A stretch of DNA of 64,000 nucleotides. Origin: an uncultured Solirubrobacterales bacterium (GTDB lineage Bacteria; Actinomycetota; Thermoleophilia; Solirubrobacterales; Solirubrobacteraceae). The notes beneath the pieces were generated by a model. The model did no database searches. It saw only the letters and a program-made list of their open reading frames with translations, and had not been told where the DNA came from. Shown in pieces: positions 10,307 through 64,000 of the stretch; position 1 is the stretch's first letter, and every line of letters begins with the position of its first letter. Location: assembly GCA_963822535.1 (NCBI GenBank), contig CAWGIA010000001.1:172797-236796 (forward strand), written 5' to 3'. A program made the translations under genes and the position numbers.

Positions 10307-10353
10307 TCGCCTCAGCCTACGAAATGTCGGCTCGAGGCCGTCGCCGGGGGTGT

Positions 10354-24192: not shown

Positions 24193-24284
24193 CGACCCGT
24201 AGGTAGCAACCCGTAGGTAGCGACCCGTGGTGGTAGCGAGCCGTAATAACGCGCCGTCTTAGCGAGCCGTAGTAGCGATCTGCG
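24190..24284 (+). repeat. degenerate tandem array of TAGCGAnCCGTAG-like units (6 copies)
   Basis: The units are TAGCGACCCGTAGG, TAGCAACCCGTAGG, TAGCGACCCGTGGTGG, TAGCGAGCCGTAA..., TAGCGAGCCGTAG and TAGCGATCTGCG. The array starts at the stop codon of the first GH6-like gene. Confidence 0.7.
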
Positions 24285-24380
24285 TCCAGGAAATTGGACA
24301 CGAACGGGCCCCCCGTCCAAAAAAGCTGGACACCTAGGCCAATTACTTGAGCGACCGTCCAACACTCCGATGAATGGAGC

Positions 24381-25810: not shown

Positions 25811-26278
25811 TCAGACCTCGGAGCCGGTGCCCGCGTGTCTGATCACTCGGGCGGGATTGCCCACCACCACGGCACCGGGCGGCACATCGGCGATGACCAC
25901 GGCTCCCGCCCCGACCATCGCCTCTTCGCCAACCGTGAGTCCCGGCAGGATCACGGCGCCAGCTCCGATGCTGGCCCCGCGACACAACGTGGTCAGGAGA
26001 AGCTCGAACGGCTGTCGGCTGCGGGGGAAGCGGTCATTCGTGAACGTGGCCTGAGGCCCGATGAAGACGTCATCCTCGACGCGCAGGCCGTCCCACAGAT
26101 AGACCCCGGACTTGATCGTGACGCGATCACCAACGATTACGTCACCCTCGATGAAGGTGTGGTCACAGACGTTGCAATCGCGCCCGATCACCGCACCCTT
26201 CATGACATGAGCGAAGGCCCAGATACGAGTGCCGGCGCCGATCGTGTCGCTCTCCACAAGCGCCTGCTCGTGGATCAT
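25811..26278 (-). CDS. left-handed beta-helix sugar N-acetyltransferase (WbpD/WlbB-like)
   Basis: 155 aa with hexapeptide repeats ([55 protein letters not shown]). Its ATG overlaps the stop of the BY-kinase gene. Confidence 0.75.
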
Positions 26279-37884: not shown

Positions 37885-39018
37885 TCAGGCTGTGAGGCTC
37901 CCACCAGGAGCTTCCGCGTTGCGGTTGCCGTGATGGTGCTTGGCGTGCTTGCGCTGTTCGAACCTGCGGTGTGCACGGCGCCGCTTCAGTGAAGACGCCC
38001 GAGCTACAGCCTTCTTGCTGTGCTTGACGATCTTCTTGGGAGCAGGTTTTGTCGGAGTGGGAGGCGTGGGCGGCGCGAGAGTCATCGCGTTCGCCGTAGC
38101 GTTGAACGATGAGCCGGTCACGTCATTGCCGAGCCAGAGAGAAAGCGGTGCGCTCAATGCACCTGTGTAAGCCTCCGTCTCGTCAACGTAGTTAGGGTCA
38201 CAGCAGGTCTTGGTGTTGTCCCACTGCACGGTCGGGATCCCGCTGACGTTGCTCGATGAATTCCAAGTGCTGGCGCCCGCGGTCTTGTACCAGGTCTGGA
38301 TCTGACCGGTGTTGTCGCTGGCCCAGTGCACATGCATGAGCATCTGGTTCCACTGACCCTGCACGAGGGCTCCTGGCGGGATGACATATTCCGCCGGCAG
38401 AGTTCCGGGGTTCCCGTTCGGGTTATCGGCGTTCGAATGATTGACGCATCCGGGAGCGACGGTCGTGTGGTTGTTACAGGCTCCGGTCTGCAGCGCTAGC
38501 GTGACGTGATCGGCGTGCAACTGGAATGAGATCGGGGCACCGTAGATGTTCTGGAAGTGGTATTCCTGAATCTCGACGCCGGTGAAGTAGCTGCCGGCGG
38601 TCCAGCCCCGAGGGACGTACACGCTGAGGCCGTAGTAGCCGTCAGTCCCGAGTCCGATCGGGTGTGAGCCGGTGACGACGTCACACGCCTCGAGCGGGTA
38701 TGTCGAGGTATTCGTATCGGCGGGGAGCGAGAACTCGCCTGAGCTCGCCATGCCGCTGACGTTCGGGGTCTGGGTGAAGGTTCCCCGGAGCCGTGGTGAC
38801 TGGCTGGGCGTACCGTGGTTGGCGCACTGTATGCCACCACCGCCGCTCGTCCAAGGATTCATCGTCGAAAACGTTCCGTTGAATGAGACGCCGGCAGGGA
38901 GGGGCGCGGTCGGCGTATTCGCCTGAGCGGTCCCGGCGATCACCATGCTCCCCATGACGGTCAGCAGTAGCGCCGCCCCATGCGCTTTCCGCCAAGTCCT
39001 GAGTGTTTGCTTGAGCAC
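37885..39018 (-). CDS. secreted polysaccharide-lyase-like protein (heparin-lyase-I/PF14099-like fold) with polycationic His-rich C-terminal tail
   Basis: GGAGGA lies 4 nt before the GTG start (39016-39018). Signal peptide ...AGTAQA. Blocks YYGLSVYVPRGW, EIQEYHFQNIYGAPISFQLHADHVTLALQTG and W..MLMHVHWASDNTGQIQTWY resemble the polysaccharide lyase family. Tail: KKIVKHSKKAVARASSLKRRRAHRRFEQRKHAKHHHG. Confidence 0.45.
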   Translation of the reverse strand: MLKQTLRTWRKAHGAALLLTVMGSMVIAGTAQANTPTAPLPAGVSFNGTFSTMNPWTSGGGGIQCANHGTPSQSPRLRGTFTQTPNVSGMASSGEFSLPADTNTSTYPLEACDVVTGSHPIGLGTDGYYGLSVYVPRGWTAGSYFTGVEIQEYHFQNIYGAPISFQLHADHVTLALQTGACNNHTTVAPGCVNHSNADNPNGNPGTLPAEYVIPPGALVQGQWNQMLMHVHWASDNTGQIQTWYKTAGASTWNSSSNVSGIPTVQWDNTKTCCDPNYVDETEAYTGALSAPLSLWLGNDVTGSSFNATANAMTLAPPTPPTPTKPAPKKIVKHSKKAVARASSLKRRRAHRRFEQRKHAKHHHGNRNAEAPGGSLTA

Positions 39019-39180
39019 GTCTTCCTCCGTTAGCCGGGTTATGCAGTCCGAGCCGCCGCTTGACGGCGGGTCTTCCTGCTCAAACCTGGGATCGGCGCGG
39101 CCGGCGAGGCGGCAAAACAACCCGCGAGAACTTGGACAGATGGAGGAATATGGAGCGGCCGAGGGCCCGACAACGCCAAC

Positions 39181-39258: not shown

Positions 39259-40404
39259 TTAGCTCTTGTGCTCGCCGTGATGGTGCCGAGCGTGCTTGGC
39301 ATGATCGCCGCGCTTGGCATGATCGCCGCGCATGCGGCGCTCGAGTCCGCGATTCTCGCGGTGCCGCTTCAGTGAAGCCGACCGAGCCACAGCCTTCGTG
39401 CTGTGCTTGACGGTCTTCCTTGGAGCCGGAGCCGACCCACCGGCCGGCGTCGGCGGCGCCAGGCTCATCGCGTTCGTCGTAGCGGTGAACGATGAGCCGG
39501 TCACGTCCTGGCCGAGCCAGAGAGACAGCGGTGCGGAAAGAGGGCCCGTGTAGGCCTCTGATGCGTCGCTGTACTTGTTGGCGCAGCAAGTCCTGGTGTT
39601 GTCCCACTGCACGGTCGGGATCCCGGTGATATTGCTGGACGAGTTCCACGTGCTGGCGCTGGCGGTCTTGTACCAGGTCTGGATCTGGCCTGTGCTGTTG
39701 CTGGCCCAATGGACGTGCATCACCATCTGGTTCCACTGACCCTGCTGAAGAGCTCCGGGCGGGATGACATACGAGGCCGGCAGATTCCCGGTGTTCCCGT
39801 TCGGATTGTCCGCGTTCGAGTGGTAGACGCATCCTGGAGCAACCGATGTGTGGTTGTTACAGGCTCCGGTCTGGAGCGCCAGCGTGACGTGGTCGGAGTG
39901 CAGCTGGAACGAGATCGGGGCACCGTAGACGTTCTGGAAGTGGTACTCCTGAATCTCGACGCCGGTAAAGAATTTGCCCGGGATCGTCCAGCCCTGAGGG
40001 ACGTAGACACTGAGACCGTAGTAGTCGTCGGTACCGAGTCCGATGGGTTGCGCGCCGGTGACGACGTCACACGCCTCGAGCGGATACTGCGAGGTGTTCG
40101 AATCGGCGGGAAGTGTGAACTGACCCGACGAGGCCATCCCGTTCACGTTCGAGGTTTGAGTGAACGTTCCTCGGAGCCGCGGTGATTGGCTGGGCGTTCC
40201 GTGGTTGGCGCACTGTATGCCGCCACCGGCACTTGTCCAGGGGTTCATGGTCGAAAATGTCCCGTTGAATGTGAGTCCTGGCGGGAGCGGGGGCGTGGCG
40301 GTACTCGCCTGAGCGGTTCCGGCGATCACCATGCTCCCCATGAGAGTCAGCAGTAGCGCCGCCCCATGCGCTTTCCGCCAAGTCCTGAGTGTATACTTGA
40401 GCAC
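39259..40404 (-). CDS. secreted polysaccharide-lyase-like protein, tandem paralog of 37885-39018
   Basis: Same architecture with long identical blocks (MNPWTS.GGGIQCANHGTPSQSPRLRGTFTQT). GGAGGA-tgac-GTG start at 40402-40404. Basic tail with an RGDHAK x2 repeat. Confidence 0.45.
   Translation of the reverse strand: MLKYTLRTWRKAHGAALLLTLMGSMVIAGTAQASTATPPLPPGLTFNGTFSTMNPWTSAGGGIQCANHGTPSQSPRLRGTFTQTSNVNGMASSGQFTLPADSNTSQYPLEACDVVTGAQPIGLGTDDYYGLSVYVPQGWTIPGKFFTGVEIQEYHFQNVYGAPISFQLHSDHVTLALQTGACNNHTSVAPGCVYHSNADNPNGNTGNLPASYVIPPGALQQGQWNQMVMHVHWASNSTGQIQTWYKTASASTWNSSSNITGIPTVQWDNTRTCCANKYSDASEAYTGPLSAPLSLWLGQDVTGSSFTATTNAMSLAPPTPAGGSAPAPRKTVKHSTKAVARSASLKRHRENRGLERRMRGDHAKRGDHAKHARHHHGEHKS
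39295..39330 (-). repeat. perfect 18-bp tandem repeat x2 (RGDHAK RGDHAK) in basic tail of lyase-like paralog 2
   Basis: cttggcatgatcgccgcg occurs at 39295-39312 and 39313-39330. Confidence 0.9.
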
Positions 40405-40642
40405 GTCATCCTCCGTTGGGTGGTATTGCAGTTCGAGCCTTTGCTTGGTGGTGACGGCTCGTCCTGTTGCAAACCTGGGATCGGCATGGCAGCGCGAGCT
40501 GCCCACCAACCAGGGAGCACCTAGACAGATGGAGGAAACACAAGGGGCGGCTTAGGGCACCCCAATTTGGCCTGATGTACCTCGGCTTGTGAGGTGCATC
40601 AGGTCGTGCTGACCGGGGCCGGGGCCCGCCGCTCTAATAACC

Positions 40643-40712
40643 GGTGGTAAACACGCTAGTAAACGGTGTTATGCACTCTGGTAAACAGTGCCACATGCTC
40701 TGGTAAACAGTG
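40643..40712 (-). promoter_or_regulatory. four GTAAAC boxes incl. two perfect 15-nt direct repeats CTCTGGTAAACAGTG; candidate operator array upstream of lyase-like paralog 2
   Basis: GTAAAC occurs at 40647, 40659, 40681 and 40703 (spacing 12, 22, 22). CTCTGGTAAACAGTG occurs at 40676-40690 and 40698-40712. The region is an AT-richer 308-nt gap between the asnB-like stop and the gene start at 40404. Confidence 0.3.
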
Positions 40713-42629
40713 TCAATTGACCGGAGGAGAGATACGGCTGGCGGCGGCGTCTCCATCTACCCATAGCCGCTGCCACAGCTCGAGCATCAGGGCGCAGAAC
40801 AGGACCTGTGCGTTCTTGCGTCCACTCTCCCCAGCATCGGAGATCAACGCCTCCAGGGTGGCTGGATCGAGCTGCCCACGGTTCCGGGTGCGCGGATCGA
40901 GCATCACATCGCGCACGAATCCATCACGGTGCGTTCGCAGCCAATCCCCGAGAGCCGCGTTGAGGAAGCCGGTCTTCTTCTTCTTCAGCACGGAGTCGTC
41001 AACCAAGCCTCGGGCAGCCCGACGGAGGACCTCCTTGCGCCGGAGCAGCCAGACGCGCCGGCTGTTGGGCAAGGCGAGGGAGAAGCTGACCAGACGGTGG
41101 TCGACGAACGGCACGCGCACCTCGAGCGATGCCGACATCGACATCTTGTCGAAGTACAGGAACAGCTGATCCACAAGCGCCATCCGACGATCCAGCTCGA
41201 GCGTCTGATCGAGGATCGAAACCCCCTCGGGTAGCGCGTACTGAGTTACGGCCTCGAGCGCGGCGGCCTCTCCCACCGAGGAGCGGAAGCTATCCGTGAA
41301 CAACGCTGTGCGCATTTCGGGCCCCGTCACGCGGCTCATGGCCAGCAGACGTTCACCCGGGCTGTGGGCCGACAGGGCCGTCAGGCCTCGACTCAGCGTC
41401 GATCCGGCCGATGCGCGCGTTGCCAGGCCTGCGGCCAGCGGCACCCCACCGGGGATGCGGGCCACGAGATCCGCGCCGGCGGCGATCTGGTGCTTGCGGT
41501 AGCCACCGAAGAGCTCATCCGCCCCCTGCCCCGAAAGCGCCACCGTCACCTCGCGCCGAGCCAGCTGGCAGATGAGCTGAAAGCCGAGCGAGGACAGATC
41601 GGCGATCGGCTCCTCGATGTTCCAGAGCATGTCCTGGAGCGCCGCGGGATCGTCACGGAGTTCGATCTCGAGCTCGTGATGATCGGCTCCCAGCCGCTCG
41701 GCCACGCGGCGGGCGTCGGCCAGCTCATTGCTGGCGGGCAGCCCGGAGAACCCGATCGAGAAGGTCTTGATCGGCTGAGGGCTGGCCTCGGCCATGAGGG
41801 CCCCGATCAGCGAGGAGTCGACGCCACCGCTCAGCATCAGCCCCAGGGGCACATCGCTCACCATGTGCTCGCGAACTGAACGCCTCAAGATCGCCAAAAG
41901 CTCCTCGGTGTCGTCCTCCCAACTGGCCCTCGCACGCCGCTCCGGGATCTCGTCCCGCGGGTTCCAGTAGCTCTCCTCGCCCGTGATGCGCCCGTCCTCA
42001 TAGACCAGGATGCTGGCGGCCATCAGCTTCCTCACACCCGCGAACAGCGTGCGCGGACCGGGGACGTAGCCGTAGGCCATGAACAGCTCGGCTCCGACGG
42101 GATCCAGGCTGGGGGTGACGAGCCCTGCGGCCACGAGCGCCTTGACCTCGGAGGCAAAGGCCAGGCCGTCCGCCAGCTCAGCGACATACAGCGGCTTGAT
42201 CCCCAGGCGATCGCGAGCCAGCACCAGCCGGCGGCGGGCGCGATCCCACACGGCGATCGCGTACATCCCGGCGAGGTGACGTGGGAAGGCGATCCCGTGC
42301 TCCTCATACAGGTGCACGATCACCTCGGTGTCACAACGCGAGCTCAGGCGATGAGTGGATCCCAGCTCGGCCAGCAGCGAGCGGAAGTTGTAGATCTCGC
42401 CGTTCTGGATCGCATCGACCGTCTCGTCCTCGTTGGTGCTCGGCTGCCGTCCGCCTTCGACATCGATGATCGACAGCCGGCGCATGCCCAGGGCGATCCC
42501 GGGCTCCAGGAGCTCACCGCGGTCGTCCGGACCGCGGTGGCGCATGGCGTCGGTCATCGTCCGCAGGCGCTCAGGACTGAGCGGAACCTGCCTTGGGTCG
42601 CGTGCCACGACCCCGCAAATTCCGCACAC
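40713..42629 (-). CDS. asparagine synthase (glutamine-hydrolysing) family amidotransferase
   Basis: N-terminal nucleophile MCGICGV and the PP-loop SGGVDSS, 638 aa. Last gene of the GNAT-ACAD-A-CP operon. Confidence 0.85.
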   Translation of the reverse strand: MCGICGVVARDPRQVPLSPERLRTMTDAMRHRGPDDRGELLEPGIALGMRRLSIIDVEGGRQPSTNEDETVDAIQNGEIYNFRSLLAELGSTHRLSSRCDTEVIVHLYEEHGIAFPRHLAGMYAIAVWDRARRRLVLARDRLGIKPLYVAELADGLAFASEVKALVAAGLVTPSLDPVGAELFMAYGYVPGPRTLFAGVRKLMAASILVYEDGRITGEESYWNPRDEIPERRARASWEDDTEELLAILRRSVREHMVSDVPLGLMLSGGVDSSLIGALMAEASPQPIKTFSIGFSGLPASNELADARRVAERLGADHHELEIELRDDPAALQDMLWNIEEPIADLSSLGFQLICQLARREVTVALSGQGADELFGGYRKHQIAAGADLVARIPGGVPLAAGLATRASAGSTLSRGLTALSAHSPGERLLAMSRVTGPEMRTALFTDSFRSSVGEAAALEAVTQYALPEGVSILDQTLELDRRMALVDQLFLYFDKMSMSASLEVRVPFVDHRLVSFSLALPNSRRVWLLRRKEVLRRAARGLVDDSVLKKKKTGFLNAALGDWLRTHRDGFVRDVMLDPRTRNRGQLDPATLEALISDAGESGRKNAQVLFCALMLELWQRLWVDGDAAASRISPPVN

Positions 42630-42638
42630 CTCGCCCTC

Positions 42639-42887
42639 TCAGCCGGCGAGCTTGGTCTCGACCAGGGCCCTGATGTGCTCGATCGTGCCGAAGTTGGCGG
42701 GGACGACGTCTGCGTCATCGATGTCCACGCCGAACTCCTCCTCGAGCCAGGCCACCAGGCGCAACAGGGCCATCGAGTCGATGACGCGCTTCTCGATCAG
42801 CGGATAGTCGTCAGTGAGCTCCTCCGGCGGGCCCTGCCAGCGCGCCTCCTCGATCAGGAAGCTTCGAATGCGCTGCGCATCTACCAC
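42639..42887 (-). CDS. acyl/peptidyl carrier protein
   Basis: 82 aa with the phosphopantetheine-attachment motif VIDSMALLRLV. GGAAGGGG lies upstream of the GTG start. Confidence 0.7.
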   Translation of the reverse strand: MVDAQRIRSFLIEEARWQGPPEELTDDYPLIEKRVIDSMALLRLVAWLEEEFGVDIDDADVVPANFGTIEHIRALVETKLAG

Positions 42888-42906
42888 TGGGTAACCCCTT
42901 CCGCCA

Positions 42907-44502
42907 CTAGCCTTGCAATGCCCGCCGGTCGACCTTGCCGGTCGTCAATTTCGGAAGCTCCGGGCGGAACTCGATCTCGTCCGGGATCATATAAGGCGGC
43001 AGCCGCTCACGCAGGCTCTGGATGATCTCGGGATCGGACACGGGTTGGCTCACGGCCACGTAGGCGCGGAGCCGATTGGTCACGTTCTCGTCCGGAACGG
43101 CGATGACCGCCGCCTCGACGATCACGTCGAGCGCGTGCAGGGCGGCTTCGATGTCGCCCAGCTCCACCCGGTAGCCGCGGGTCTTGATTTGGGCATCGCG
43201 GCGGCCGACGAAGATGAGCTCCCCTCCCGGCTCCCGGCGGACCAGATCTCCGGTCCGGTACAGGCGCTCCGTCCCGGATCGGCTGAGCACACGATCGGTC
43301 CGCTCAGGATCACCCCAGTAGCCGTGCATGACCGTGGGGCCGGAGATCAGAAGCTCACCCACCTCTCCGTCAGGCGCCTCGCCGCCCTCCTGAGTCTCGA
43401 TCCGCGCCGTCACGCCGCCGATTGGCCATCCGATCGGGAGCGGGTCCGGGGGCGGTGCGCCGGCCGGCACCTCGTACCAGGTACACACGTTGGTCTCCGT
43501 GGGGCCAAAGAAGTTCAGGTACCGAGCCTCGGGGAGAAGCTCCATCAGGCGCGCCAGGTGCTTGGTGGGAAACACCTCACCGGCGAACACGATCGCCCTC
43601 AGTGCGGGAAGGGAGCGCTGGCCGAGGGCTCCGTGCAGCACGAGCAAGGTCAGGGCCGAGGGAACCGAGTACCAGACGGTGATCGCCTCGGCTTCGATGA
43701 ACGCCGTCAGCTCCACCGGGAACACGGCCGCCGACCGGGGGACGAGCACGACGGCGGCGCCGGCCCAGGCGGCGGCGAACAGGTCGAACACCGATAGGTC
43801 GAAGTGAAACGGAGCGTGGCTCGACAGCCGGTCCTCGGCACCGATGCCAACCTCCTGAGCGGCCCACTCCACAAACGCCAAGGCGTTGCGGTGAGACAGG
43901 GTCACTCCCTTCGGCTCGCCGGTCGAGCCCGACGTGTACAGGATGTAGGCGATGTCATCCGGCCCGATGCCGGCCACGGATGGCGGCTCGGCGGAGCCCG
44001 ACATTTCCGGCCACGCGAGCACCGTCGGCCCGGCCGATTCGAGCTCCGGAAGCGAGGCGCCATTCGGAAGCGAGGCGCCGTTCGGAAGCGAGGCGCCGTT
44101 CGGAAGCGAAGCGCCGATCACGAGCTCGAGGTCCGTCCCGGCCTCGAGCAGGCGCTGCGCATCCTGGGTGCTCACTTCCGACGTGATCAGGCAGCGCATC
44201 CCGGCGTTGGCCACGATGTAGGCCAGCCGAGCCGCGGGCGCCTGGCTGTCCAGTGGGACGTAACCGGCTCCAGCCTTGAGCACGCCGTAGATCGCGACCA
44301 CCGCCTCGATCGACTTTTCGAGCAGGAGGCCGACGCGATCCCCGGGGCGGACCCCGTGGTCGATCAGGGTATGCGCCAGCCGATTCGCCGCTGACTCGAG
44401 CTCGCCGTAACTGAGGCGCCGATCACCGTCGACGACGGCCGTGCGCTCCGGATCGTCAGCCGCCGCGCGCTCCAGCAACCCGTGGATCAGCGTGGCGCTC
44501 AC
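42907..44502 (-). CDS. stand-alone adenylation enzyme (DltA/PltF-like amino acid--carrier protein ligase)
   Basis: Core motifs LKAGAGYVPLD, YILYTSGSTGEPKGV, FHFDLSVFD, FFGPTE, YRTGD and TGKVDR. The GTG start overlaps the ACAD stop (GTGA). The ORF is open to 44664. Confidence 0.85.
   Translation of the reverse strand: MSATLIHGLLERAAADDPERTAVVDGDRRLSYGELESAANRLAHTLIDHGVRPGDRVGLLLEKSIEAVVAIYGVLKAGAGYVPLDSQAPAARLAYIVANAGMRCLITSEVSTQDAQRLLEAGTDLELVIGASLPNGASLPNGASLPNGASLPELESAGPTVLAWPEMSGSAEPPSVAGIGPDDIAYILYTSGSTGEPKGVTLSHRNALAFVEWAAQEVGIGAEDRLSSHAPFHFDLSVFDLFAAAWAGAAVVLVPRSAAVFPVELTAFIEAEAITVWYSVPSALTLLVLHGALGQRSLPALRAIVFAGEVFPTKHLARLMELLPEARYLNFFGPTETNVCTWYEVPAGAPPPDPLPIGWPIGGVTARIETQEGGEAPDGEVGELLISGPTVMHGYWGDPERTDRVLSRSGTERLYRTGDLVRREPGGELIFVGRRDAQIKTRGYRVELGDIEAALHALDVIVEAAVIAVPDENVTNRLRAYVAVSQPVSDPEIIQSLRERLPPYMIPDEIEFRPELPKLTTGKVDRRALQG
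44047..44118 (-). repeat. 18-bp in-frame tandem repeat x4 ((GASLPN)3 GASLPE) inside the stand-alone adenylation enzyme
   Basis: Four consecutive units cggaagcgaggcgcc(a/g)tt; the last is slightly diverged. Confidence 0.9.
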
Positions 44503-45680
44503 AGGCCGAGATGTCGAGCGATCACGTTGCGCTGCATCTCCGATGTTCCGGAGTAGAGCTGTCCGCCCAGGGCGTCTCGGACGTCGCGCTCGAGGCCTGT
44601 CTCGGTGATGTAGCCGTAACCGCCATGGATCTGAACGGCATCGAGACTCGAGTGCACGAGGCACTCGCTGAGGTGCAGCTTGGTCATCGAGGCATCCAGA
44701 TCTGTGGCCGCGCCCTGGTCAAGCAGGCCGGCGATTCGGTACAGCATCAGGTGTGCGGTCTCGAGGCGGAGCTTCATATCGGCGATCTTGTGTGACACGG
44801 CCTGGAAGTTGCCGATTGGCTGGCCGAACTGAACCCGCTCCCGCGCGTAGTGAACGCAGCGCTCGAGCTGCCGGCGCATCGTGCCCACGGCAGCGCCCAG
44901 GATCAGGCTCCGCTCCCAGCGCATCGATGTATTGAAGATGGCCATGCCCGCCCCCTCGCTCCCCAGCAGCGCATCGGCCGGGATCGCGCAGTCAGCAAAG
45001 GACAACTCGCTCAGATGCGAGGTACGCAGGCCCATCTTCGAGTATTGCTGTCCCACGGTGAGACCGGGCGCGTCCCGCGTGATGAGAAACGCCGACAGCC
45101 CGGCGAAACCAAGGCTGCGATCGGTGGTGGCGAAGACGACAAACAGGTCACTCTCGGGCGCGTTGGTCACGAACGCCTTCGAGCCGTTGAGGATCCAGCC
45201 GCCGTCGCTGCGTACCGCCGTGCTGGTCAGGCTGAACGCGTCCGAGCCCGACGCCGGCTCGGTCATACCGTGAGCGGCGATCAGAGAACCGTCACACAGT
45301 GCGGGGAGATAGCGCTGCTTCTGCTCCTCGGTACCGAAATGGATCAGGGGGAGCTCGCAGGCCCACATCTGGGCGTTGAGCGAGAAGATCAGGCCGTTGT
45401 CGGCGCAGCCGTAGCCCAGGCCCTCGAGCGCGGCGGCAATCGTGGTGGCGCTGGCCCCGATACCGCCGTACTCCACCGGCACCGGGAGACCCATCAGATC
45501 CATCCGTGCGCACTTGACCCAGGCCTCGCGGGAGAACATTGCGTCCCGGTCACGCTCGTCCAACCCGCGGTTGAGCTCGCCCTGAGCGAACGCGGTCACC
45601 GCCGCGCGCAGCGATCGCTGCTCGTCGTCCAGTGGGTCCGGGCGCGGCGGGATGGCGCCGTCGCCGAACGGCCGTCTCAT
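44499..45680 (-). CDS. acyl-CoA dehydrogenase family flavoprotein
   Basis: ACAD N, middle and C-terminal domain pattern (HGMTEPASGSD, the QFGQPIGNFQAV region and the catalytic-base region IHGGYGY). The ATG overlaps the stop of the upstream GNAT-like gene (ATGA). Confidence 0.85.
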   Translation of the reverse strand: MRRPFGDGAIPPRPDPLDDEQRSLRAAVTAFAQGELNRGLDERDRDAMFSREAWVKCARMDLMGLPVPVEYGGIGASATTIAAALEGLGYGCADNGLIFSLNAQMWACELPLIHFGTEEQKQRYLPALCDGSLIAAHGMTEPASGSDAFSLTSTAVRSDGGWILNGSKAFVTNAPESDLFVVFATTDRSLGFAGLSAFLITRDAPGLTVGQQYSKMGLRTSHLSELSFADCAIPADALLGSEGAGMAIFNTSMRWERSLILGAAVGTMRRQLERCVHYARERVQFGQPIGNFQAVSHKIADMKLRLETAHLMLYRIAGLLDQGAATDLDASMTKLHLSECLVHSSLDAVQIHGGYGYITETGLERDVRDALGGQLYSGTSEMQRNVIARHLGL

Positions 45681-46579
45681 CGGGCCCCAGTGCTCGTCTG
45701 GCCGGCGCGCACCGGCACCAGGTAACGGGCGTAGCTCGTGAACGGGCGGTAGCCGAGACCCAGCCAAACCGGCGCGCCCAGGCTGGAGGTCTGGCACAGG
45801 GAGATGGTGGCGTCCATCTCCTCGAAGCTGTGGGCCAGGGCCACCCAGAGGCAGCTCTCGGCCAAACCCCGGCGCTCGCCCGGTGGTGCCGAGGGAGGAA
45901 GCCGCTGGCCCTTGCGGGGCCGGCGGATGGTCGCCGCCTGACAGCCGAGGGCAACGCCGTGGCTGACCAAGGTCATCGCGGCCGAAAGTGGCTGGTCATC
46001 GAAATAGGCCACATAAGCGGCTACGTGCGGATCGGCCAGGCTGTCGGGATCGAAGAAGACCCGGGCTGCCACCTCTCGCGGCATGGCACCCATGCCCCAT
46101 GCCTCGGACACCAAGCCCAAGTAGTCCTCGCGCGCGCTCGAGGTGTCCGTGCGCCGGATCTCGACCCCCTCCGGCGGAGGCAGGTACTCGGGCAGCGCGT
46201 CAAGCACGAGTTCGGGCAGGCGCTCGAGCTCGGATAGCCCTGTCCCCTGGGCCGCCGCCTCGATGTCGGCGTCGGCGTGCTCACGGGCCCATAGGGCATA
46301 GCCGCTGCTGCGAGCGCCGAAGAACGCCCCCGCACGCTCGAGCACCTGCTCGGCGCTCAATCCGGCGCCGATCCGCAGAGCGCCGTTGCGATATGGGTTG
46401 GGCTGGCGGTGCGCACCGGCGAACAACAGCAGGCCGTCTTCCTCGTGGATGGCGCCCCCGTACTGAGCCAGGTAGCGCAGGTATGCGGCCAGACTCAGGT
46501 CGGCGAGAGTCAGCAGATCCTCTCCCCCGTCCGGCCCATCCATGGCCGGCCTATGCACCGCACGAGCCCTCGTATCCAC
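45677..46579 (-). CDS. GNAT-like acyltransferase (weak assignment)
   Basis: The C-terminal half has a GNAT-like beta4-alpha3 region (AAYVAYFDDQPLSAAMTLV...RRGLAESCLWVALAHSFE). The N-terminal half is unassigned. Confidence 0.35.
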   Translation of the reverse strand: MDTRARAVHRPAMDGPDGGEDLLTLADLSLAAYLRYLAQYGGAIHEEDGLLLFAGAHRQPNPYRNGALRIGAGLSAEQVLERAGAFFGARSSGYALWAREHADADIEAAAQGTGLSELERLPELVLDALPEYLPPPEGVEIRRTDTSSAREDYLGLVSEAWGMGAMPREVAARVFFDPDSLADPHVAAYVAYFDDQPLSAAMTLVSHGVALGCQAATIRRPRKGQRLPPSAPPGERRGLAESCLWVALAHSFEEMDATISLCQTSSLGAPVWLGLGYRPFTSYARYLVPVRAGQTSTGAR

Positions 46580-46654: not shown

Positions 46655-47587
46655 GTGCTAGAGGGATCTAGCTCCGGGCTGTCTGCGGGTGGGGCGACGA
46701 GTGACGCGTCTCCGCTTCGCCGTGACCTAAGCAGCGACTCCGGAGCCACAACCACCGGACCGCGCCGAGAAATCTGGTTTCGGCGGCGGGTCAATCTCCC
46801 ATTTGCCTTCCGCGAGCTGTGGAGTTTCCGCGAACTGATCCTCACGCTAGCCGAGCGCGACCTCCGAATCCGCTACAAGCAGGCGACCCTGGGGCTCGCC
46901 TGGGCGGTCATCTCTCCGGTGATGATGATGATCGCCTTCACCCTGATCTTCACCAAGGTCGCGCACGTCAAGACCGGGGGGGTTCCCTACGCGCTGTTCT
47001 CCTACATGGGGCTCCTGCCGTGGACGTTCTTCTCCACGGCCCTCAGCCAGGGCGGGACCAGCCTGACCTCGAACGTGCCGCTGCTGAACAAGCTCTACTG
47101 CCCGCGAGAGGTGTTCCCGATCGCGGCGATTGCCGACGCGGCGGTGGACGCGCTGATCGCCACCTGCGTGCTGGCGGTCCTGTTCCCCATCACCGGCTTT
47201 GCTCCGCACGCGCAGATCTACTACCTCCCGCTGTATCTGATCGTTCTGTTGATGTTCACGCTCGGCGTGACGCTGGCGGTCTCGGCGACCGTGGTGTATA
47301 TGCGCGATTTCAGCCTCGTGCTGCCGATGGTCATCCAGCTCGGACTATTCATCACGCCGGTTGTGTACGGGCCGTCGTCGATTTCCAACTCGCAGACGTT
47401 CCTCGTCGTGTATTCGATCTTGAACCCCCTTGTGCCGGTGATCGACGGCATCCGTGGCAGCGTTCTGCACGGCTCGGCCCCCCAGTGGGGCGCCCTCGGA
47501 GCCGGCGCCGTCAGCTCGCTGGTGGTCCTGATCGCCGGCTTCGTGATGTTCAAGCGGCTCGAGACCGGAATGGCGGACATTGCTTAA
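46655..47587 (+). CDS. ABC-2 type polysaccharide exporter permease (Wzm/TagG-like)
   Basis: RELILTLAERDLRIRYKQATLGLAWAVISP is the family signature, followed by six TM segments. The N-terminal 50 aa are uncertain. Confidence 0.8.
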   Translation: MLEGSSSGLSAGGATSDASPLRRDLSSDSGATTTGPRREIWFRRRVNLPFAFRELWSFRELILTLAERDLRIRYKQATLGLAWAVISPVMMMIAFTLIFTKVAHVKTGGVPYALFSYMGLLPWTFFSTALSQGGTSLTSNVPLLNKLYCPREVFPIAAIADAAVDALIATCVLAVLFPITGFAPHAQIYYLPLYLIVLLMFTLGVTLAVSATVVYMRDFSLVLPMVIQLGLFITPVVYGPSSISNSQTFLVVYSILNPLVPVIDGIRGSVLHGSAPQWGALGAGAVSSLVVLIAGFVMFKRLETGMADIA

Positions 47588-48773
47588 CGGCACCATCGAA
47601 GCCGCGGAGGTGTGGAAGCGCTTCCGGCTCGACGAGCGTCCCACGTACCTGCAGGATCGGATCGCCCAGGTTGGCGATCGGCTCCGCAGTCGCGAGGGCG
47701 AGAGCTTCCGGTGGGCGCTGCGCGACATCAGTTTCGAGGCCGCGCCGGGCGAATCCTGGGCGCTGGTGGGCGCCAACGGCGCCGGCAAGTCAACTCTCCT
47801 GAAGATCATCTCGCGCGTCATGTACCAAACTGCCGGGCGGATCTCGCTGGCCGGGCGCGTGGGGGCCCTGATCGAGGTTCGCGCCGGGATTGCGCCGCTG
47901 CTCACCGGGCGCGAGAACATTTACCTGACCGGTTCGATCATGGGTCTCAAGCGCCGTGACGTCGCCAAGCGCTTTGACGAGATCGTGGCCTTCGCCGAGC
48001 TCGACCACGCCGTCGACCGGCAGGTCAAGTACTACTCCTCCGGGATGCAGATGCGCCTCGGGTTCGGGGTCGCCGCCTACCTGTCCCCGGACATTCTGCT
48101 CGTTGACGAGGTGCTGGCCGTGGGCGATGCCACCTTCCAGCAGCGGTGCCTGGAGCGCATCCGTCATGTGCTCAGCGAGGGCACCACGCTGCTGTTCGTC
48201 TCCCACGACCTGGCCGCGGTGGAGGCCACCTGCGCCAACGGCATCTGGGTCCACAACGGGGAGGTGCAGACCATGGGACCGATCCGGGACGTGCTCGGAT
48301 CCTACCGTGGAGCCGTCGAGGGTGAGGCCAAGGCCCGCCCCAAGATCGAGGGCCTGCTTCAGGTGCCCCATGTCAGCGCTGGCGCACCCGACGGCGGCCT
48401 GGTCAAGAGTGGCGAGACGCTCGATGTGAGCCTGACCCTGCAGAGCAATGAGAGCTGCCGCGCCTGGGTCTATCTCGGGATCAGCGAGGGTGACGCCAAG
48501 CCCATCTTCCTGGTCAACCCGGGCCGCGAAACGCTCCTGGATCCAGGGGGAACCACGATCAAGTGCTCGATCCCACGACTTCCGTTGCCGCGCGGGCGCT
48601 ACTACGTGTGGTGCGGGGTGTACAAGAACTGGACCAACGGCAAGGAGCTCCTGGGCTGGCAGCCGCTGACCGATTTCGACGTCTACGGTCCCGAGCTCGA
48701 TGCCGCCCCGACGGCAGTGGTGCGGACGTCCGCCCTGCACATCGATTCCGAGTGGGAGCTCGGCGACCGCTAG
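47580..48773 (+). CDS. polysaccharide ABC exporter ATP-binding protein (Wzt/TagH-like) with C-terminal extra domain
   Basis: Walker A GANGAGKST, signature YSSGMQMRLGF, Walker B ILLVDE, and TGRENIYL, typical of the Wzt/TagH/KpsT clade. A roughly 150-aa beta-rich C-terminal extension resembles the Wzt C-terminal glycan-binding domain. Confidence 0.85.
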   Translation: MLNGTIEAAEVWKRFRLDERPTYLQDRIAQVGDRLRSREGESFRWALRDISFEAAPGESWALVGANGAGKSTLLKIISRVMYQTAGRISLAGRVGALIEVRAGIAPLLTGRENIYLTGSIMGLKRRDVAKRFDEIVAFAELDHAVDRQVKYYSSGMQMRLGFGVAAYLSPDILLVDEVLAVGDATFQQRCLERIRHVLSEGTTLLFVSHDLAAVEATCANGIWVHNGEVQTMGPIRDVLGSYRGAVEGEAKARPKIEGLLQVPHVSAGAPDGGLVKSGETLDVSLTLQSNESCRAWVYLGISEGDAKPIFLVNPGRETLLDPGGTTIKCSIPRLPLPRGRYYVWCGVYKNWTNGKELLGWQPLTDFDVYGPELDAAPTAVVRTSALHIDSEWELGDR

Positions 48774-48805: not shown

Positions 48806-51800
48806 TCAGGTGGTTCCGGCGCCGTCCAGCGCCCGGGTGAGCTCGGCCGCCAGCAGCCCCACGTACGGCTGGTGCATCATGCGCTCGTGCTGGATTCCGG
48901 GGGCGATGATCTGCCGCAGGTTGACACCGCGGCCGGCCACGCTGTCCCACGGCGTGGGGCGTTTCTCTGCATCGGTCTGAGCGCGGAAGAAGTCCACCCG
49001 GATGTCCAGGGGTCGAGGTACATAACGTATCCGGGCCAGGTTGCTGGCGATCAGCACCAGGTTCCAGGGCCGCCGGGGCAGCCAGCCGTGCAGGCCGCGG
49101 GTGGACAGGACCTCGAATACACGGGGGCCGACGCGTATGTACGCAAGCTCGATCAGCCGGCGCTGGAGGCCCTTGGCCCGGATCCGGAGCCACTGGCGCC
49201 TGCCCTGACGGTCGGCGCTGCGGAGTGTCTGTAGCTGGGCCCGCTGGGCCTGGATGCGCCGCCGCCGCTTCCGGGGCTGCCACGGGTACGCGTCGAGCAA
49301 GGCTAGGAGCGAGACGTCCTCGCCGTCGGCCATGAGCAAACGCGCCATCTCGTAGGCCACCAGCCCGGAGAAGCAGAAGCCGCCCAGCCGGTAGGGACCG
49401 TGGCGCTGAACGCGCCGGACCTCGGCCACGTAATGGCGAGCCAGCGCGTCGACGCTGCCGAGCGGTGAGGCCTGGCGGTCGACGACCCCCGGGGCCTGGA
49501 GGCCATAGACCGGGAGGTCGGCCTCGAGGCTCTCAGCCAGGTCGCGGTAGGGCAACACCTCGCCGCCCGCCCATGCGACCAGGAACAGGGGCGTGCCCTG
49601 TCCGCCCTCGCGCAGGCGGACGACCGACCCCCAGTCGATCTTCTCCCGGCGGTCACGGTCGATCAGGTCAGCCAGGCCGGCGATCGTGTCAGTCTCGAAC
49701 AGCGCCGAGAGCGGCAACCGGACTCGGAGCTGGCGCTCGATCTCGGAGAACAGACGTACGGCGAGCAGCGAATGTCCGCCGAGCTCGAAGAAGCTGTCCT
49801 GGACGCCGATCCGCTCGACCCCCAGCACCTCGCTCCAGAGCGGCGCCAGCGCGAGCTCGGTGGCCGTGGTGGGCGGGGCGAACTCCTGGGCGGCGGCCGC
49901 GCGGCTGAACTCGGGGGCCGGCAACGCCTTGACGTCCAGCTTTCCGTTCCGGGTCAGGGGCAGGGCGTCAATGAACACCCAGGCGGCGGGAATCATGAAG
50001 CTCGGCAGACGGTCAGCCAGGAACGAACGGAGCTCATCGGCCCCGGGCGGATGGGCGCCGTCCACGGCGACGATGTAGGCGGCGAGACGGACATCCCCGC
50101 TCTGAGCCGGTGAGGCGATTACCGTGGCCTCGTTCACTGCGGGATGGGTCCCGAGCGCCGCCCGAATCTCCCCCAGCTCGATCCGGAACCCCCGGATCTT
50201 GACCTGGTCATCCATCCGGCCCCGGAAGTCGAGTTCGCCCCCCGGCAGGCGGCGTGCCACATCGCCGGTGCGGTACAGGCGTCCGGGCCCGAACGGGTTC
50301 TCGATGAAGCGCTCCGCGGTCAGCTCGGAGCGGTTCAGGTAACCCCGAGCCACCCCGGCACCCCCGACGAACAGCTCGCCCACCACGCCCCGCGGGACGG
50401 GCTCGCGGTGGCGATCGAGCAGGTACAGGCTGAGATCTGGAATCGGCTCGCCGATCGGGCTGGCCGCGGACTCGCAGTCGGCGGCGAGAAGGGGACGGTA
50501 GGTCACGTGCACCGTCGTCTCGGTGATCCCGTACATGTTCACGAGCTCCGGACCCGAGTCACCAAAACGCTCGAACCAGGGCCGCAGAGCCGGCGGCTCG
50601 AGGGCCTCTCCGCCGAAGATGACCGTCCGGAGCGCCAGGCGCTCGGCCCGCTGCAGGAGCGCATCCTGGATCCCCAGGAAGAGGCTCGGGGTCGCGTTGA
50701 GGACGGTCACCTCCTGATCGCTGATCGCGGCGGCCAGCACGGCCGGGGTCCGCGTGGTCAGCCGGGGGGTGATCACCAGCCGGCCGCCGTGCGCGAGTGC
50801 ACCCCACAGCTCCCAGACACTGAAGTCGAACGCGTATGAGTGCAGCAACGTCCACACGTCGGAGGGCCCAAAGCCGTACCAGGCCTCGGTGGCGGAGAAC
50901 AGACGGGCGACCTGGCGGTGCTCGACCTGAACGCCCTTCGGACGCCCGGTGGAGCCCGAGGTATAGATCACGTAGGCGAGATCCTCGGGGCGGGCCAGCG
51001 GCTCGGGATTCTCCGCGCTCTGTTGGGCCAGCGCATCGACCTCCTGGTCCAGGCAGATGACCTGGGCCGGGCCCTCCGGCAGGCGGTCGAGCACCGAGCT
51101 GTGCAGAACGACGATCGGAGCGCCGGTGTCCTCGAGCACGAATGACAGACGCTCAGCCGGGTACTCGGGGTCCAGCGGCACGTAGGCCCCGCCGGCCTTG
51201 AGCACGCCCAGGATCGCGGCCAGCATCTCGAACGAGGGCTCGAGCAGCAGCGCGACGAGCGAACCCGGGCCGACACCCCGGGACCTGAGGCAGTGGGCAA
51301 CCTGGTTGGCACGGCGGTTGAGCTCCTCGTAGGAGATCGCGGCGCCGTCATGGGTGGCGGCGATGGTCTGCGGCCGCTCGGCCGTCGCCCGCTCGAACAG
51401 CTCGTGCATGCAGGCGACCGGGTAATCCGCCTGGGTCGCCGCTCCCGCGGCCAGGGCGAGCTCGCGCTCCTCCTCGTCCAGCAGCGGCAGCTCGGACATC
51501 GGCCGTGCCGGATCCTCGAGCGCGGACCGGAGCAGGTTCATGTAGTGGGAGAGCATCCGCTCGACGGTGGCCTCATCGAACAGGTCAGTCGAGTACTCGA
51601 TTGACAGGCGCAGGCCGTCCGCGGTCTCGGCGCCGTACAGACCAAGGTCGAACTTCGTCGTGCGTCGTGCGCCGGACACGCGCGCGGTCTGCAGGTCCTC
51701 GAGCCCCAGCGGCTCCTCGACGGTATTCAGCGCGAAGCTGACCTGGGCCAGGGGCGGGAAGCTCAGCTGGCGATCCGGGTTGAGCTCCTCGACGAGCTTC

Positions 51801-54800
51801 TCGAAGGGCAGGTCCTGATTGCTGAACGCCCCGACGGCGGTCTTGCGCACATCGTGCAGGAGCTGGCGGAACGACGGGTCATCCTCAAGGCTCGCGCGCA
51901 GCGGAAGAGTGTTGACGAAGAATCCGATCAGCCCCTCGAGCTCGGCGCGATTTCGGTTCGCCACCGGAGAGGCCACCACCACGTCCTCCTGCCCGCTATA
52001 GCGCGACAGAAGGCCCACAAATGCGGCCAGCAGCGTCATGAACAGGGTCGTCCCCTCACCCTCGCCGAGCTGCTTGACCTGGGCCAGCTCTGCCGGCCCC
52101 AGCAACTGGCGCACAACTGCACCTTTGAAGGTCTGCCGAGCCGGCCGGGGCCGGTCAGTGGGGAGCTCGAGCAGTGCCGGCGCCCCGGCCAGTTGCTCCC
52201 GCCAGTATTCGAGCTGCTGATCCAGGCCGCCGCTGCGCAGCCATTCCTGCTGCCAGGCGGCGAAGTCCCCGTACTGGATCGCGAGTGGCGCCAGCTCCGG
52301 ATCCTCGCCCCGGTGGTAGGCGCGGTACAGGGTCGAGAGCTCCCGCTGGAACACGCCGATCGACCAACCGTCGACGATGATGTGGTGCAGCGTGATGATC
52401 AGGATGTGATCGTCGGCGGCGAGGTCGATCAGGGCCGCCCTCAGAAGCGGACCGCTCGACAGGTCAAAGCCCCGGCCGGCCTCGGCGCCGACCAGGCGCT
52501 GGGCCGCCTCCTCGGCGTCCGGCGCCCCCTGAAGATCGGTCACGGCGAGAGGGACAGGGCCGGGCGCAGACACCACCTGATGGGGCGCGCCATCGATCAC
52601 GGCGAAGGTGGTTCGCAGTGACTCGTGGCGAGCGACGAGCTCGTCCAGGGCCCGGCGCAGGGCCGGCACGTCGAGCGAACCGGCCAGACGCACCGCCATG
52701 GGAACGTTGTAGGCGGGGTTGTCAGGCTCGAGCCGGTCAAGGAACCACAGCCGCTGCTCGGCATACGAAGCCGGCAGCACCACGCGCTCATCCTCCGAAC
52801 CCTCCATCCGGCGCGCCTCTCGCGGCGCAGGCAGGATCGGAGGCAGCGAGACGGCGGTGACCTGACTGCCGGCACCGCGAAGGACCGCCGCGAGGCCGGC
52901 GATCGTCGGGCTGTCGAAGATCGCGCTGAGCGCGAGCTCCACATCGAGCCGGTCACGGACGCGGGAGACCAGCCGCACCGCCAGCAGCGAGTGGCCCCCG
53001 AGCGCGAAGAAGTTGTCATCGCGCCCCACACGCTCAAGACCGAGCAGCTCGGCCCAGACATCGGCCAGCGCCTGCTCGGTGTCATCGACGGGCGGGGCGT
53101 ACTCAGCGGTCATCCGCGCCCGGTCATCCGGGGCGGGCAGCGCACGGCGGTCGACCTTGCCGTTGGGGCTCAAGGGATACTCGGCCAGCGTCACGAACGC
53201 CGCGGGAATCATGTATGCGGGCAGCGTTCGAAGCAGGAAATCGTGCAGCTCAGCCGCAGTCGGACCCGGCTCGTCCACTCGCAGGTACGCCACCAGACCG
53301 GCGCCGCTGCCGTCATCGTCGCGGGTCAGGACCAGCGCCTCCCGCACCGAGCTGTGATCGCGCAGCGCGGCCTCGATCTCACCCGGCTCGATGCGATAGC
53401 CCCGCACCTTGACCTGGTGGTCAATCCGGCCGAGAAACTCGATATTGCCGTCCGGCAGGTAACGCGCGAGGTCACCGGTGCGGTACATCCGGGTGCCGCT
53501 TCCGCTGCTCAGCGGATCCTCGACGAAGCGCTCGGCGGTCAGCTCGGGACGGCCCAGATAGCCGCGGGCCAGGGACACACCGCCGATGCAGAGCTCGCCC
53601 GGCACCCCAATCGGTACCGGCTGCAGGTGACGGTCGAGCAGGCGGACCCTGGCGCCGGAGATCGGGCGGCCGATCGGCGGGAGCGACGGCCACTCCTGCG
53701 CTTCGCCCGACAGGCGCAGGGCCGTGACGACATGGCTCTCGGTGGGGCCATAGTGGTTAAACAGCGTGCACTGCTGGTGCCGGGAGAAAAATCGGCGTAC
53801 GGCGGGGGTCACCTTCAGCTGCTCCCCAGCGGTGATGATCTCCCGCAGATCGGCAACCGACTGCTCGCTGTGCTCGGCCGCCTCGCACAGGTTCTGCAGC
53901 GCCACGAACGGCAGGAACAGGCGCTCGACGCGCTCGTGCGCGAGCAGCCTGAGGAGACCTTCGGGGTCGCGGCGGACCGCCTCGTCGGCCAACACCAGCG
54001 TGCCGCCCGAGCACCAGGTGGAGAAGATCTCCTGGAACGCGACGTCGAACGACAGCGAGGCGAACTGAAGGGTGCGGGCGGGACCCGGCGCAGTGCTGTG
54101 GAGCTGCCAGGCCAGCAGGTTGGCCAGCGGCCGATGAGGCATTGCCACGCCCTTGGGCTGCCCCGTGGAACCTGACGTGTAGAGAACGTAGGCGAGGTTG
54201 TCGGGCGTGGGCTCGGCTGGCGCTGGGACGTTCTCCGCGGAGACGGTCGACTCCCAATCGGAGTCAAGGCAGACGGTGAGCGCGTCCCGGTCCGGCAGGC
54301 CGGACAGCAGATGCTGCTGGGTGAGCAGAACGGGGGCGTCGGAGTCGGCCAGCATGAACTTGATCCGCTCGGCCGGGTAAGCCGGATCGATCGGCGCGTA
54401 GGCGCCGCCCGCCTTGAGCACACCGAGCACGGCCACCACCATTTCCACCGAGCGCTCGGCACAGATCGCCACCACGGTGTCCGGTCCGACCCCGAGCTCA
54501 CGCAGGTGAGACCCCAGCCGGTCGGCCTGGGCATCGAGATCGGCGTAGCTGAGGCGCTGGCCCGCGTGGTCCACAGCGATCGCCTGCGGGGTGCGGCGGG
54601 CCTGGTCAGCCACGAGCTCGTGCACGCACCGTGGGGCTGGGCTCTCGGTCTCCCCCCCGGTGCTCCAGCGGTCGAGCACCAGCTCTCGCTCCTCGGCCGG
54701 GAGCAGGTTCAGCTCGGACACCGGGCGGGAAGGATCGGCGAGGATCGCCTCGAGCAGCGTCTCGAAATGCCGCAGCATCCGCTGGATCGTGGTCTCGTCG

Positions 54801-56064: not shown

Positions 56065-59467
<3,403 letters not shown>

Positions 59468-63900: not shown

Positions 63901-64000
63901 CGGCCTCCGGCACCTCGTGCAGGTCCGAGACCAGCAGCTCGACCTCGCCGGCCGCACGCACCTCCTGCACGGGGGCGCCGTCGGCCAGCCCGAGCGTCGT
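60988..64000 (-). pseudogene. NRPS (..)-C-A-T, 5' end outside window, one +1 frameshift at about 62549-62551 as assembled
   Basis: C domain 62560-64000 (HHIGSDHVS variant; the frame continues past the window edge). A-T 60988-62550 ([19 protein letters not shown] at 62182-62202, MYGPTETTVW, GGHSLLAVRM). The join AAYVP|IDPTYP is broken by an extra base in a G/C run. Confidence 0.85.

Follow-up and report, generated by a model that had tools for sequence, protein, structure and literature searches.

A predicted proline-oxidation cassette with a tandem-GNAT partner adjoins a nonribosomal peptide synthetase in uncultured Solirubrobacterales

The 64,000-nucleotide stretch analyzed here (the window) belongs to an uncultured Solirubrobacterales bacterium (assembly GCA_963822535.1, contig CAWGIA010000001.1, positions 172,797 to 236,796) and contains an operon of five minus-strand genes. 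They encode a tandem-GNAT-fold protein named here X, an acyl-CoA-dehydrogenase-like protein (ACAD), a stand-alone adenylation (A) enzyme, a free-standing peptidyl carrier protein (PCP) and an AsnB-family amidotransferase. The conserved unit is probably X-ACAD-A-PCP, acting as a thiotemplated cassette for proline oxidation in the service of the neighboring nonribosomal peptide synthetase (NRPS), and its product is most likely a pyrrole-2-carbonyl or pyrroline-carbonyl unit for an Orn-Pro-Thr (ornithine-proline-threonine) NRPS. Actinobacteria of the Thermoleophilia (order Solirubrobacterales) abound in soil, and hardly any of their natural products have been characterized; from the locus, a small Orn-Pro(-Thr) peptide with a pyrrole or pyrroline cap is predicted. 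The sole new element is the coupling of a tandem GNAT to a prolyl-carrier oxidase: literature searches for this combination found no described pathway and, as far as searched, both the conserved tandem-GNAT partner and the recurring NRPS/exporter/cassette locus of uncultured Solirubrobacterales seem to be undescribed.

The A enzyme passed the NCBIfam model of amino-acid adenylation (TIGR01733; 388.2 bits, cut-off 317.4). Its best single-domain relative of solved structure is PltF (PDB: 6o6e), which scores 322 bits with the full-length enzyme and 250 bits with its specificity core, and the next stand-alone PDB match, a second L-proline--carrier ligase (7thn), as well as DltA, are well behind PltF. 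The PDB search with the A-domain core was dominated by two-domain LgrA entries, therefore the proline code was taken from PMC3874040. Specificity codes were read by alignment to GrsA, which as a control gave its known code DAWTIAAICK. The A enzyme shows the code DLFYVAFVCK, with Asp235 and Lys517 both present, and its orthologs show DLFYIAFVCK, DLFYAALVCK or DLFYLALVCK. According to PMC3874040, stand-alone proline A enzymes share the consensus L(L/F)YLALVC, and positions 236, 301, and 330 contact proline in CcbC. The window code (LFYVAFVC) agrees with six of the eight consensus positions and is identical at 236, 301, and 330; furthermore, the exact LFYLALVC is found in the A orthologs of the related loci L011, L019, L021, and L022. 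A previous reading of the window, made from its sequence only, had derived the code DLFYVAFVC by hand and considered it not assignable. The GrsA alignment reproduced this code, and it can be assigned to stand-alone L-proline enzymes because the six matching positions include all three that contact proline. The A enzyme is thus predicted to belong with the stand-alone L-proline adenylation enzymes of the PltF, RedM, CloN4, AnaC, and CcbC type. The carrier protein passed PF00550 (28.4 bits, cut-off 20.8). Its top PDB match (48 bits) is 2my5, an entry titled only "Peptidyl carrier protein", and its highest-ranked named relatives of solved structure are the prolyl carriers Bmp1-CP (6cxt_A), PigG (7thn_E), and PltL (2n5h).

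The A gene also contains an 18-bp tandem repeat at 44047-44116 (3.9 copies, 96% matches), which encodes three ASLPNG units and one ASLPE, N-terminal of the specificity pocket. This expansion looks genome-specific, because the A ortholog of locus L040 (92% identical) is 18 residues shorter.

The ACAD shows the three domains of the acyl-CoA dehydrogenase fold (PF02771, PF02770, and PF00441), all above their cut-offs. The RedW and PigA models were its top NCBIfam scorers by more than 100 bits (432.6 and 428.6 bits, respectively); acyl-CoA enzymes gave at most 312 bits and MbtN 62. Against PDB, AnaB (4irn) scored 426 bits, PigA 304, Bmp3 301, and an ordinary ACAD 276, and sequence identity was about 52% to AnaB and 41-43% to PigA and Bmp3. 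In a neighbor-joining tree rooted on a generic ACAD, the window protein is the sister of AnaB. Catalytic residues agree with this placement: the window ACAD and its orthologs keep the helix-G glutamate (MRWER, with a W-E-R/K pattern) and have lost the canonical ACAD glutamate, YEGT being replaced by YSGT (LYSGTSE). This pattern is that of AnaB, PigA, and Bmp3 and the opposite of a generic ACAD, and the helix-G glutamate is the catalytic base of the prolyl-carrier oxidase clade (PMC10849742). By sequence, the ACAD is assigned to the PltE/RedW/PigA/Bmp3/AnaB clade as a member that is orthologous to none of the named enzymes, and it may carry out either the two-electron oxidation of AnaB or the four-electron oxidation that gives a pyrrole. 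The sequence-only reading had taken the A + carrier + ACAD triad as a set for aminoacyl-S-carrier oxidation and had proposed placing the ACAD on a phylogeny; model scores, PDB relatives, specificity code, and catalytic residues uphold the first and narrow it to prolyl, and the tree and model scores group the ACAD with the prolyl-carrier oxidases, not with acyl-CoA enzymes.

X gave no match in sequence searches of Pfam, NCBIfam, and PDB, and no GNAT sequence profile recognized it, whereas its AlphaFold2 model, built on 52 homologs (pLDDT 85.9, pTM 0.84), shows a fold of two GNAT domains. In Foldseek the top match of the model was the tandem GNAT 4ius (1e-13), followed by VipF, MshD, the clavulanate tandem GNAT, and PamZ. 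Matches to tandem GNATs range between E-values of 1e-13 and 1e-8, with TM-scores up to 0.62 (query-normalized) and 0.71 (target-normalized), and the Fem-type aminoacyl-tRNA transferases FemX/Sbb17 matched more weakly. A profile search collected 801 clusters of X relatives, mostly of 260-300 residues, and distant members of the family match Acetyltransf_1/6/7/9/10 of Pfam in their C-terminal half. A conserved ERRGLA stretch of X lies at the expected position of GNAT motif A, sharing with Q/R-x-x-G-x-G/A only the Gly and the Ala. X is thus a predicted tandem GNAT on the basis of its model, and the domain content proposed by the sequence-only reading stood for the proteins with Pfam or NCBIfam matches; for X, which has neither, its GNAT-like call was supported by the AlphaFold2/Foldseek results and by the Pfam matches of distant relatives. 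The predicted fold is shared with PamZ, a self-resistance N-acetyltransferase of paenilamicin, and with the clavulanate-pathway tandem GNAT, both also within secondary-metabolite clusters, although sequence identity with them is only 12-19%.

An NRPS domain was also considered for X and ruled out, since the family is nearly all stand-alone proteins of 260-300 residues. In locus L027, X is a separate gene flanked by two NRPS genes. Two longer X-ACAD proteins (P0122 and P0169) show fragmentary ACAD matches and may be assembly frameshifts. Distant X relatives have uninformative contexts on short contigs; one has an AurF-like neighbor, and another lies on a contig that resembles a phage. The latter, P0139 (E 2e-45 to the profile), is located at 10001-10813 of contig L036 (Logan SRR14194065), among capsid, tail-tube, and endonuclease VII genes.

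All X homologs came from Solirubrobacterales/Thermoleophilia metagenomes. Conservation of the cassette was surveyed in 29 loci, one genome per species, obtained by a pattern-limited scan and with X identities of 44-75%, and the neighborhood of X was scored within 10 kb by tblastn with the window proteins. An ACAD was found in 27 of the 29 loci, immediately downstream of X in 26. A condensation (C) domain of an NRPS was found in 26 loci, a carrier protein in 24, a proline-type A enzyme in 23, the ABC-2 exporter pair in 19 (about 60-78% identity), and a thioesterase (TE) domain in 18. Any AsnB-like gene was present in three loci, and an AsnB ortholog (at least 60% identity) in just one, L007, which is the same place as L001. 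Variant loci include a free-standing C domain and are arranged as PCP-A-C-X-ACAD, and in L016, L027, and the locus of the distant relative P0136, X is located among NRPS genes that have no prolyl set. The proteins of L040 are about 92-95% identical to those of the window and their genes have the same order. Locus L039 (JGI 3300061843, Ga0586918_0000820; 7784-11917), also from a close relative, is without X-ACAD-A-PCP, with Wzm and AsnB directly divergent, and retains an apparently intact NRPS, the exporter, AsnB, and the glycan island (identities of 90% for AsnB, 87% for Wzt, and 81% for a lyase-like protein). Presence or absence of the four-gene cassette is thus a natural polymorphism beside an NRPS that looks intact.

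From the counts in the 29 loci together with L039, X-ACAD-A-PCP behave as a unit and AsnB as separable. A conserved unit of five genes, as the sequence-only reading had it, was not recovered, AsnB having an ortholog in one locus and occurring in L039 without the core. The overlaps and short gaps of a single window had made the functional unit look larger than it is, which is a lesson for annotation. For the four-gene core, model scores did not lead to fatty-acyl enzymes and the survey did not lack conserved linkage, the two results that the earlier reading had named as counting against its own proposal.

Its description of the operon as five minus-strand genes linked by ATGA and GTGA overlaps and short gaps was accurate. 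The ATG of the ACAD overlaps the stop codon of X (ATGA, 45677-45680), and the GTG of the A enzyme overlaps that of the ACAD (GTGA, 44499-44502). The carrier gene follows the A stop after 19 nt, with the Shine-Dalgarno sequence GGAAGGGG ahead of it, and AsnB follows the carrier stop after 9 nt, with GAGGGCGAGG ahead of it. Third-position GC is 0.81-0.83 in all five open reading frames (ORFs), and they are taken as real genes because this fits the genome (about 68% GC). An alternative ORF of 585 residues for the A enzyme is an artifact of the ORF-listing rule, and the AMP-binding Pfam match starts at its residue 64. No promoter-like sites were found in the scanned operon region, and four terminator-like matches (three within the coding sequence of the operon and one downstream of AsnB) are at chance level (expected 2.5 +/- 1.5). 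Domain searches confirmed the surroundings proposed earlier, namely a glycan island, a Wzm/Wzt exporter, and an NRPS.

Table 1. Genes of the operon and of the adjoining exporter and NRPS, with positions in the window.
Feature	Position	Strand	Remarks
X, tandem-GNAT-fold protein (predicted)	45677-46579	-	GTG start, 300 aa, first gene of the operon
ACAD, predicted prolyl-carrier-protein dehydrogenase/oxidase	44499-45680	-	ATG start, 393 aa
Stand-alone A enzyme, predicted L-proline-specific	42907-44502	-	GTG start, 531 aa
Type II peptidyl carrier protein (free-standing)	42639-42887	-	GTG start, 82 aa, Ser in VIDSMA
AsnB-family glutamine amidotransferase	40713-42629	-	GTG start, 638 aa, N-terminus MCGICG
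ABC-2 pair	46655-48773	+	Wzm-like permease 46655-47587, Wzt/TagH-like ATPase 47580-48773; PF01061, PF00005
NRPS C-A(Pro)-T-C-A(Thr)-T-TE	48806-56044	-	2412 aa, Pfam domains
Upstream NRPS module C-A(Orn-like)-T	56065-59467	-	Split into four ORFs, Pfam fragments

The exporter pair is divergent from X, with 75 nt between them, and in most loci the exporter is bordered by orthologous C and TE domains. The codes of the two-module NRPS are DVQFIAHVVK (modular proline) and DFWNIGMVHK (threonine). The upstream module is 70-87% identical to an intact C-A-T protein of 1095 residues in L001; its partial code in the window is ......SIDK, and the orthologs show DVGE(I/V)xxI(D)K, which is ornithine-like. 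The line is thus predicted from its codes to assemble Orn-Pro-Thr in the window and Orn-Pro in relatives. In L001 it consists of C-A(Orn-like)-T and C-A(Pro)-T-TE and is bounded by an esterase gene. A further NRPS module of the window, beyond the esterase gene (60988-63970), is also split, and the split modules reflect either recent pseudogenization or assembly error.

In the pathway that we propose, the A enzyme would adenylate L-proline, as its family and specificity code suggest, and load it on the phosphopantetheine arm of the carrier. The ACAD, a flavoenzyme by homology with its family, would oxidize prolyl-S-PCP, with the helix-G glutamate as the base that removes the proton at C2. Taken to four electrons, the oxidation would end at pyrrole-2-carboxyl-S-PCP, the outcome with PltE, RedW, PigA, and Bmp3; at two electrons it would yield a pyrroline-carboxyl thioester, the outcome with AnaB, the nearest relative of the ACAD. 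The acyl group would then enter the NRPS line, most likely as donor for the N-terminal C domain of the first module, and the expected product in the window would be pyrrole-2-carbonyl- or pyrrolinyl-carbonyl-Orn-Pro-Thr. This starter role is supported by L001, where a C domain opens the NRPS genes and the locus encodes no carrier-bound acyl donor besides the cassette; the free-standing C domain inside variant cassettes was also counted in favor of the C-domain donor route. A starter unit for the NRPS was one of the two products suggested by the sequence-only reading, and it fits the synteny with NRPS C domains. X most likely would N-acylate an amine of the peptide, the obvious candidate being the delta-NH2 of ornithine, with acetyl/acyl-CoA or, less likely, the acyl-S-PCP of the cassette as donor. 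If X uses the carrier-bound acyl group, GNAT transfer from carriers would extend beyond fatty acyl groups. The divergent ABC-2 pair would be the probable exporter of the product.

Several observations weigh against this proposal. The ACAD does not reach the equivalog cut-offs set for RedW (NF045652; 432.6 vs. 650 bits) and PigA (NF053553; 428.6 vs. 500 bits), and the A code of the window has V at position 299 and F at 322, unlike the proline consensus. The ornithine module shows four frame changes, near 58202, 57530, 57371, and 57085, none of them at an obvious homopolymer; this may mean either that the line does not function in the window or that the assembly has errors. The exporter ATPase is nearer to the exporters of glycopolymers (TagH, 186 bits; Wzt, 161 bits) than to DrrA (97 bits). 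In L039 the NRPS is apparently intact without the cassette, which fits an optional tailoring better than an obligatory starter. Some NRPS operons (L016 and L027) contain X but none of the other three cassette genes, therefore the donor of X need not be a prolyl-derived thioester. Finally, all sequences compared come from metagenome-assembled genomes of uncultured organisms.

The same three components are found in the pyrrole-forming sets PltF/PltL/PltE, RedM/RedO/RedW, PigI/PigG/PigA, and Bmp4/Bmp1/Bmp3, and this likeness extends to the proline code and, in each of the three window proteins, to the nearest named relatives of solved structure. Besides the ACAD scores and its identity to PigA and Bmp3 given above, the window cassette differs from them in that it has no halogenase, ketosynthase, or thioesterase partner, in the tandem GNAT whose stop codon overlaps the ACAD start, in its downstream user, an NRPS with modules for Orn, Pro, and Thr, and in its host, an uncultured member of the Solirubrobacterales. 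In anatoxin-a biosynthesis, the AnaC/AnaD/AnaB set oxidizes the starter, prolyl-acyl carrier protein (ACP), to pyrroline-5-carboxyl-ACP. AnaB is the closest characterized relative of the ACAD, and the logic of A enzyme, carrier, and oxidase is shared; however, AnaB feeds a polyketide synthase in cyanobacteria, whereas the window cassette adjoins an NRPS. By its sequences, the triad appears to be a further thiotemplated proline-oxidation system, closest to that of AnaB.

A different role for X is suggested by mycobactin biosynthesis, in which a GNAT takes an acyl group from a carrier protein and puts it on a side-chain amine. The mbt-2 operon encodes MbtK (GNAT), MbtL (ACP), MbtM (adenylating enzyme), and MbtN (ACAD), so that four enzyme classes adjoin an NRPS, as in the window. 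By analogy, X would move the oxidized prolyl group from the PCP to the delta-NH2 of ornithine, and the first C domain would use another donor; we hold this as a tentative alternative. It would account for the start/stop overlap of X and ACAD, for the position of X immediately upstream of the ACAD in 26 of the 29 loci, and for the presence or absence of the cassette including X as one while the NRPS stays (L039 vs. L040). Ornithine-like A codes occur in most X loci, and the ERRGLA stretch is a partial fit to motif A. X homologs in NRPS operons that have no ACAD, A, or PCP (L016, L027, and L032/L033) argue against it, as do the C domains that some cassettes hold and the best structural matches of X, which are acetyl-CoA-dependent tandem GNATs. 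MbtK is a GNAT-fold acyltransferase of about 210 residues, unlike the 300-residue tandem GNAT X, and MbtM and MbtN act on fatty acids, MbtN scoring 62 bits with the window ACAD. The likeness to mbtK-L-M-N is thus one of architecture, drawn only by analogy, not of pathway homology. If X did transfer the oxidized prolyl group, the four genes would be a portable make-and-attach acylation module; to our knowledge such modules are so far known only for fatty acyl groups (MbtK-N). Such a transfer by X of the oxidized prolyl group, as pyrrole-2-carbonyl or as a reactive cyclic-imine acyl, from the PCP to the ornithine side chain of a short NRPS peptide appears rather doubtful, and so does a wider version in which the widespread locus of NRPS, TagGH-like exporter, and cassette builds an exported, envelope-associated peptide of Solirubrobacterales.

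AsnB lies outside the conserved cassette. The protein shows the cysteine nucleophile of its family, the PP-loop SGGVDS (MLSGGVDSS), and the domains PF13537 and PF00733, and it passed TIGR01536 (428.6 bits, cut-off 267.1). Its best NCBIfam model, the exopolysaccharide-associated amidotransferase TIGR03108, gave 469.7 bits, far below the cut-off of 816.9, and its best solved relative is a secondary-metabolite hydroxyamidotransferase (7ylz, 215 bits; E. coli AsnB, 168 bits). In L001 an inverted lyase-like gene separates AsnB from the carrier gene, and it is surrounded by a second AsnB gene, a further gene of the lyase-like type, and one for a sulfotransferase. In L037, a metagenome relative whose X is 77% identical, a CysD-like (sulfate adenylyltransferase) gene follows the carrier gene in the place of AsnB; its N-terminus (6154-6276) was recognized by eye, and the gene overlaps the stop codon of the carrier protein. 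AsnB would then be an ordinary glutamine-dependent amidotransferase of a variable glycan/sulfation island, which abuts the carrier gene in this sub-lineage. An oxidized and amidated product, as proposed by the sequence-only reading, is not indicated, because other genomes show no linkage of AsnB to the cassette (29-locus survey, L037, and L039).

AsnB might instead have been recruited for peptide synthesis in this sub-lineage. Like the amidotransferases of thiopeptides, it could for instance act on the C-terminal carboxylate that the TE domain releases and convert it to an amide. The 9-nt gap and Shine-Dalgarno sequence after the carrier gene, the identical order in L040, the position of AsnB beside the NRPS/exporter block in L039, and the higher score of 7ylz than of E. 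coli AsnB speak for such a recruitment. We nevertheless regard it as unlikely, given that AsnB is absent from most loci with an NRPS, that the L001 ortholog lies among the lyase-like, second AsnB, and sulfotransferase genes, and that its best NCBIfam subfamily is associated with exopolysaccharide.

The glycan island downstream of the operon contains GT4/GT2, methyltransferase, sulfotransferase, and polysaccharide-lyase-like genes, and a Wzc-type tyrosine autokinase (26275-27996), a component of the Wzy pathway; the window thus holds two adjacent export routes, the TagH/Wzt-type ABC pair and the Wzc-type component. That the five genes jointly make an oxidized, amidated aminoacyl decoration of the glycan, exported by Wzm/Wzt, is very unlikely. 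Their co-transcription here and in the 95%-related L040, the TagH/Wzt type of the exporter ATPase, the glycan genes after the cassette in several loci, and the DltA-level similarity of the A enzyme are in line with it. On the other side, the AsnB ortholog adjoins in only one of the 29 loci, L039 shows AsnB, glycan island, and exporter without the cassette, and the glycan genes beyond the cassette have 28-50% identity or are absent in other loci, compared with an NRPS linkage in 26 of 29; the island also owns its Wzc-type component. The sequence-only reading had further pointed to the ligase, carrier-protein, and amidotransferase families of exosortase (XrtA/PEP-CTERM) loci. AsnB and the A enzyme do match TIGR03108 and TIGR03098, respectively, but both are far below the cut-offs (290.8 bits for the A enzyme, cut-off 592.35); furthermore, the A enzyme of the window belongs to the amino-acid adenylation domains, and elsewhere AsnB is unlinked to the cassette. 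Simple lipid activation by a fatty-acyl-AMP ligase, ACP, and fatty-acyl dehydrogenase, as in mbt-2 proper, for which the generic AMP-binding/ACAD domains and partial scores from long-chain acyl-CoA ligase models could be cited, is most improbable in view of the amino-acid adenylation model passed with Asp235 and Lys517 present, the 62 bits of MbtN vs. 433 of RedW, and the absent canonical ACAD glutamate. Exosortase-type, Dlt-type, and fatty-acyl readings were ruled out by model scores and catalytic residues.

Other features were observed in the window. A 22-bp direct repeat (40634-40690; 2.6 copies of CACTGTTTACCAGAG-type units) is located directly after the AsnB stop codon, upstream of the next lyase-like gene, and is a candidate operator-like element. 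The paralogous polysaccharide-lyase-like (PF14099) genes at 37885-39120 and 39259-40509 encode proteins with candidate signal/membrane-anchor N-termini, recognized by eye, and Lys/Arg/His-rich C-terminal tails; in L001 their homologs alternate with the two AsnB-like genes. Two adjoining GH6-like (PF01341) genes are found at 22948-25712, at the edge of the island. Finally, the murB ORF of the cell-division cluster (19444-21609) shows MurB_C and FAD_binding_4 at residues 443-708; in addition, its residues 290-384 form an endonuclease-like region (DUF559/REase_MTES_1575), in frame and located between murC and murB.

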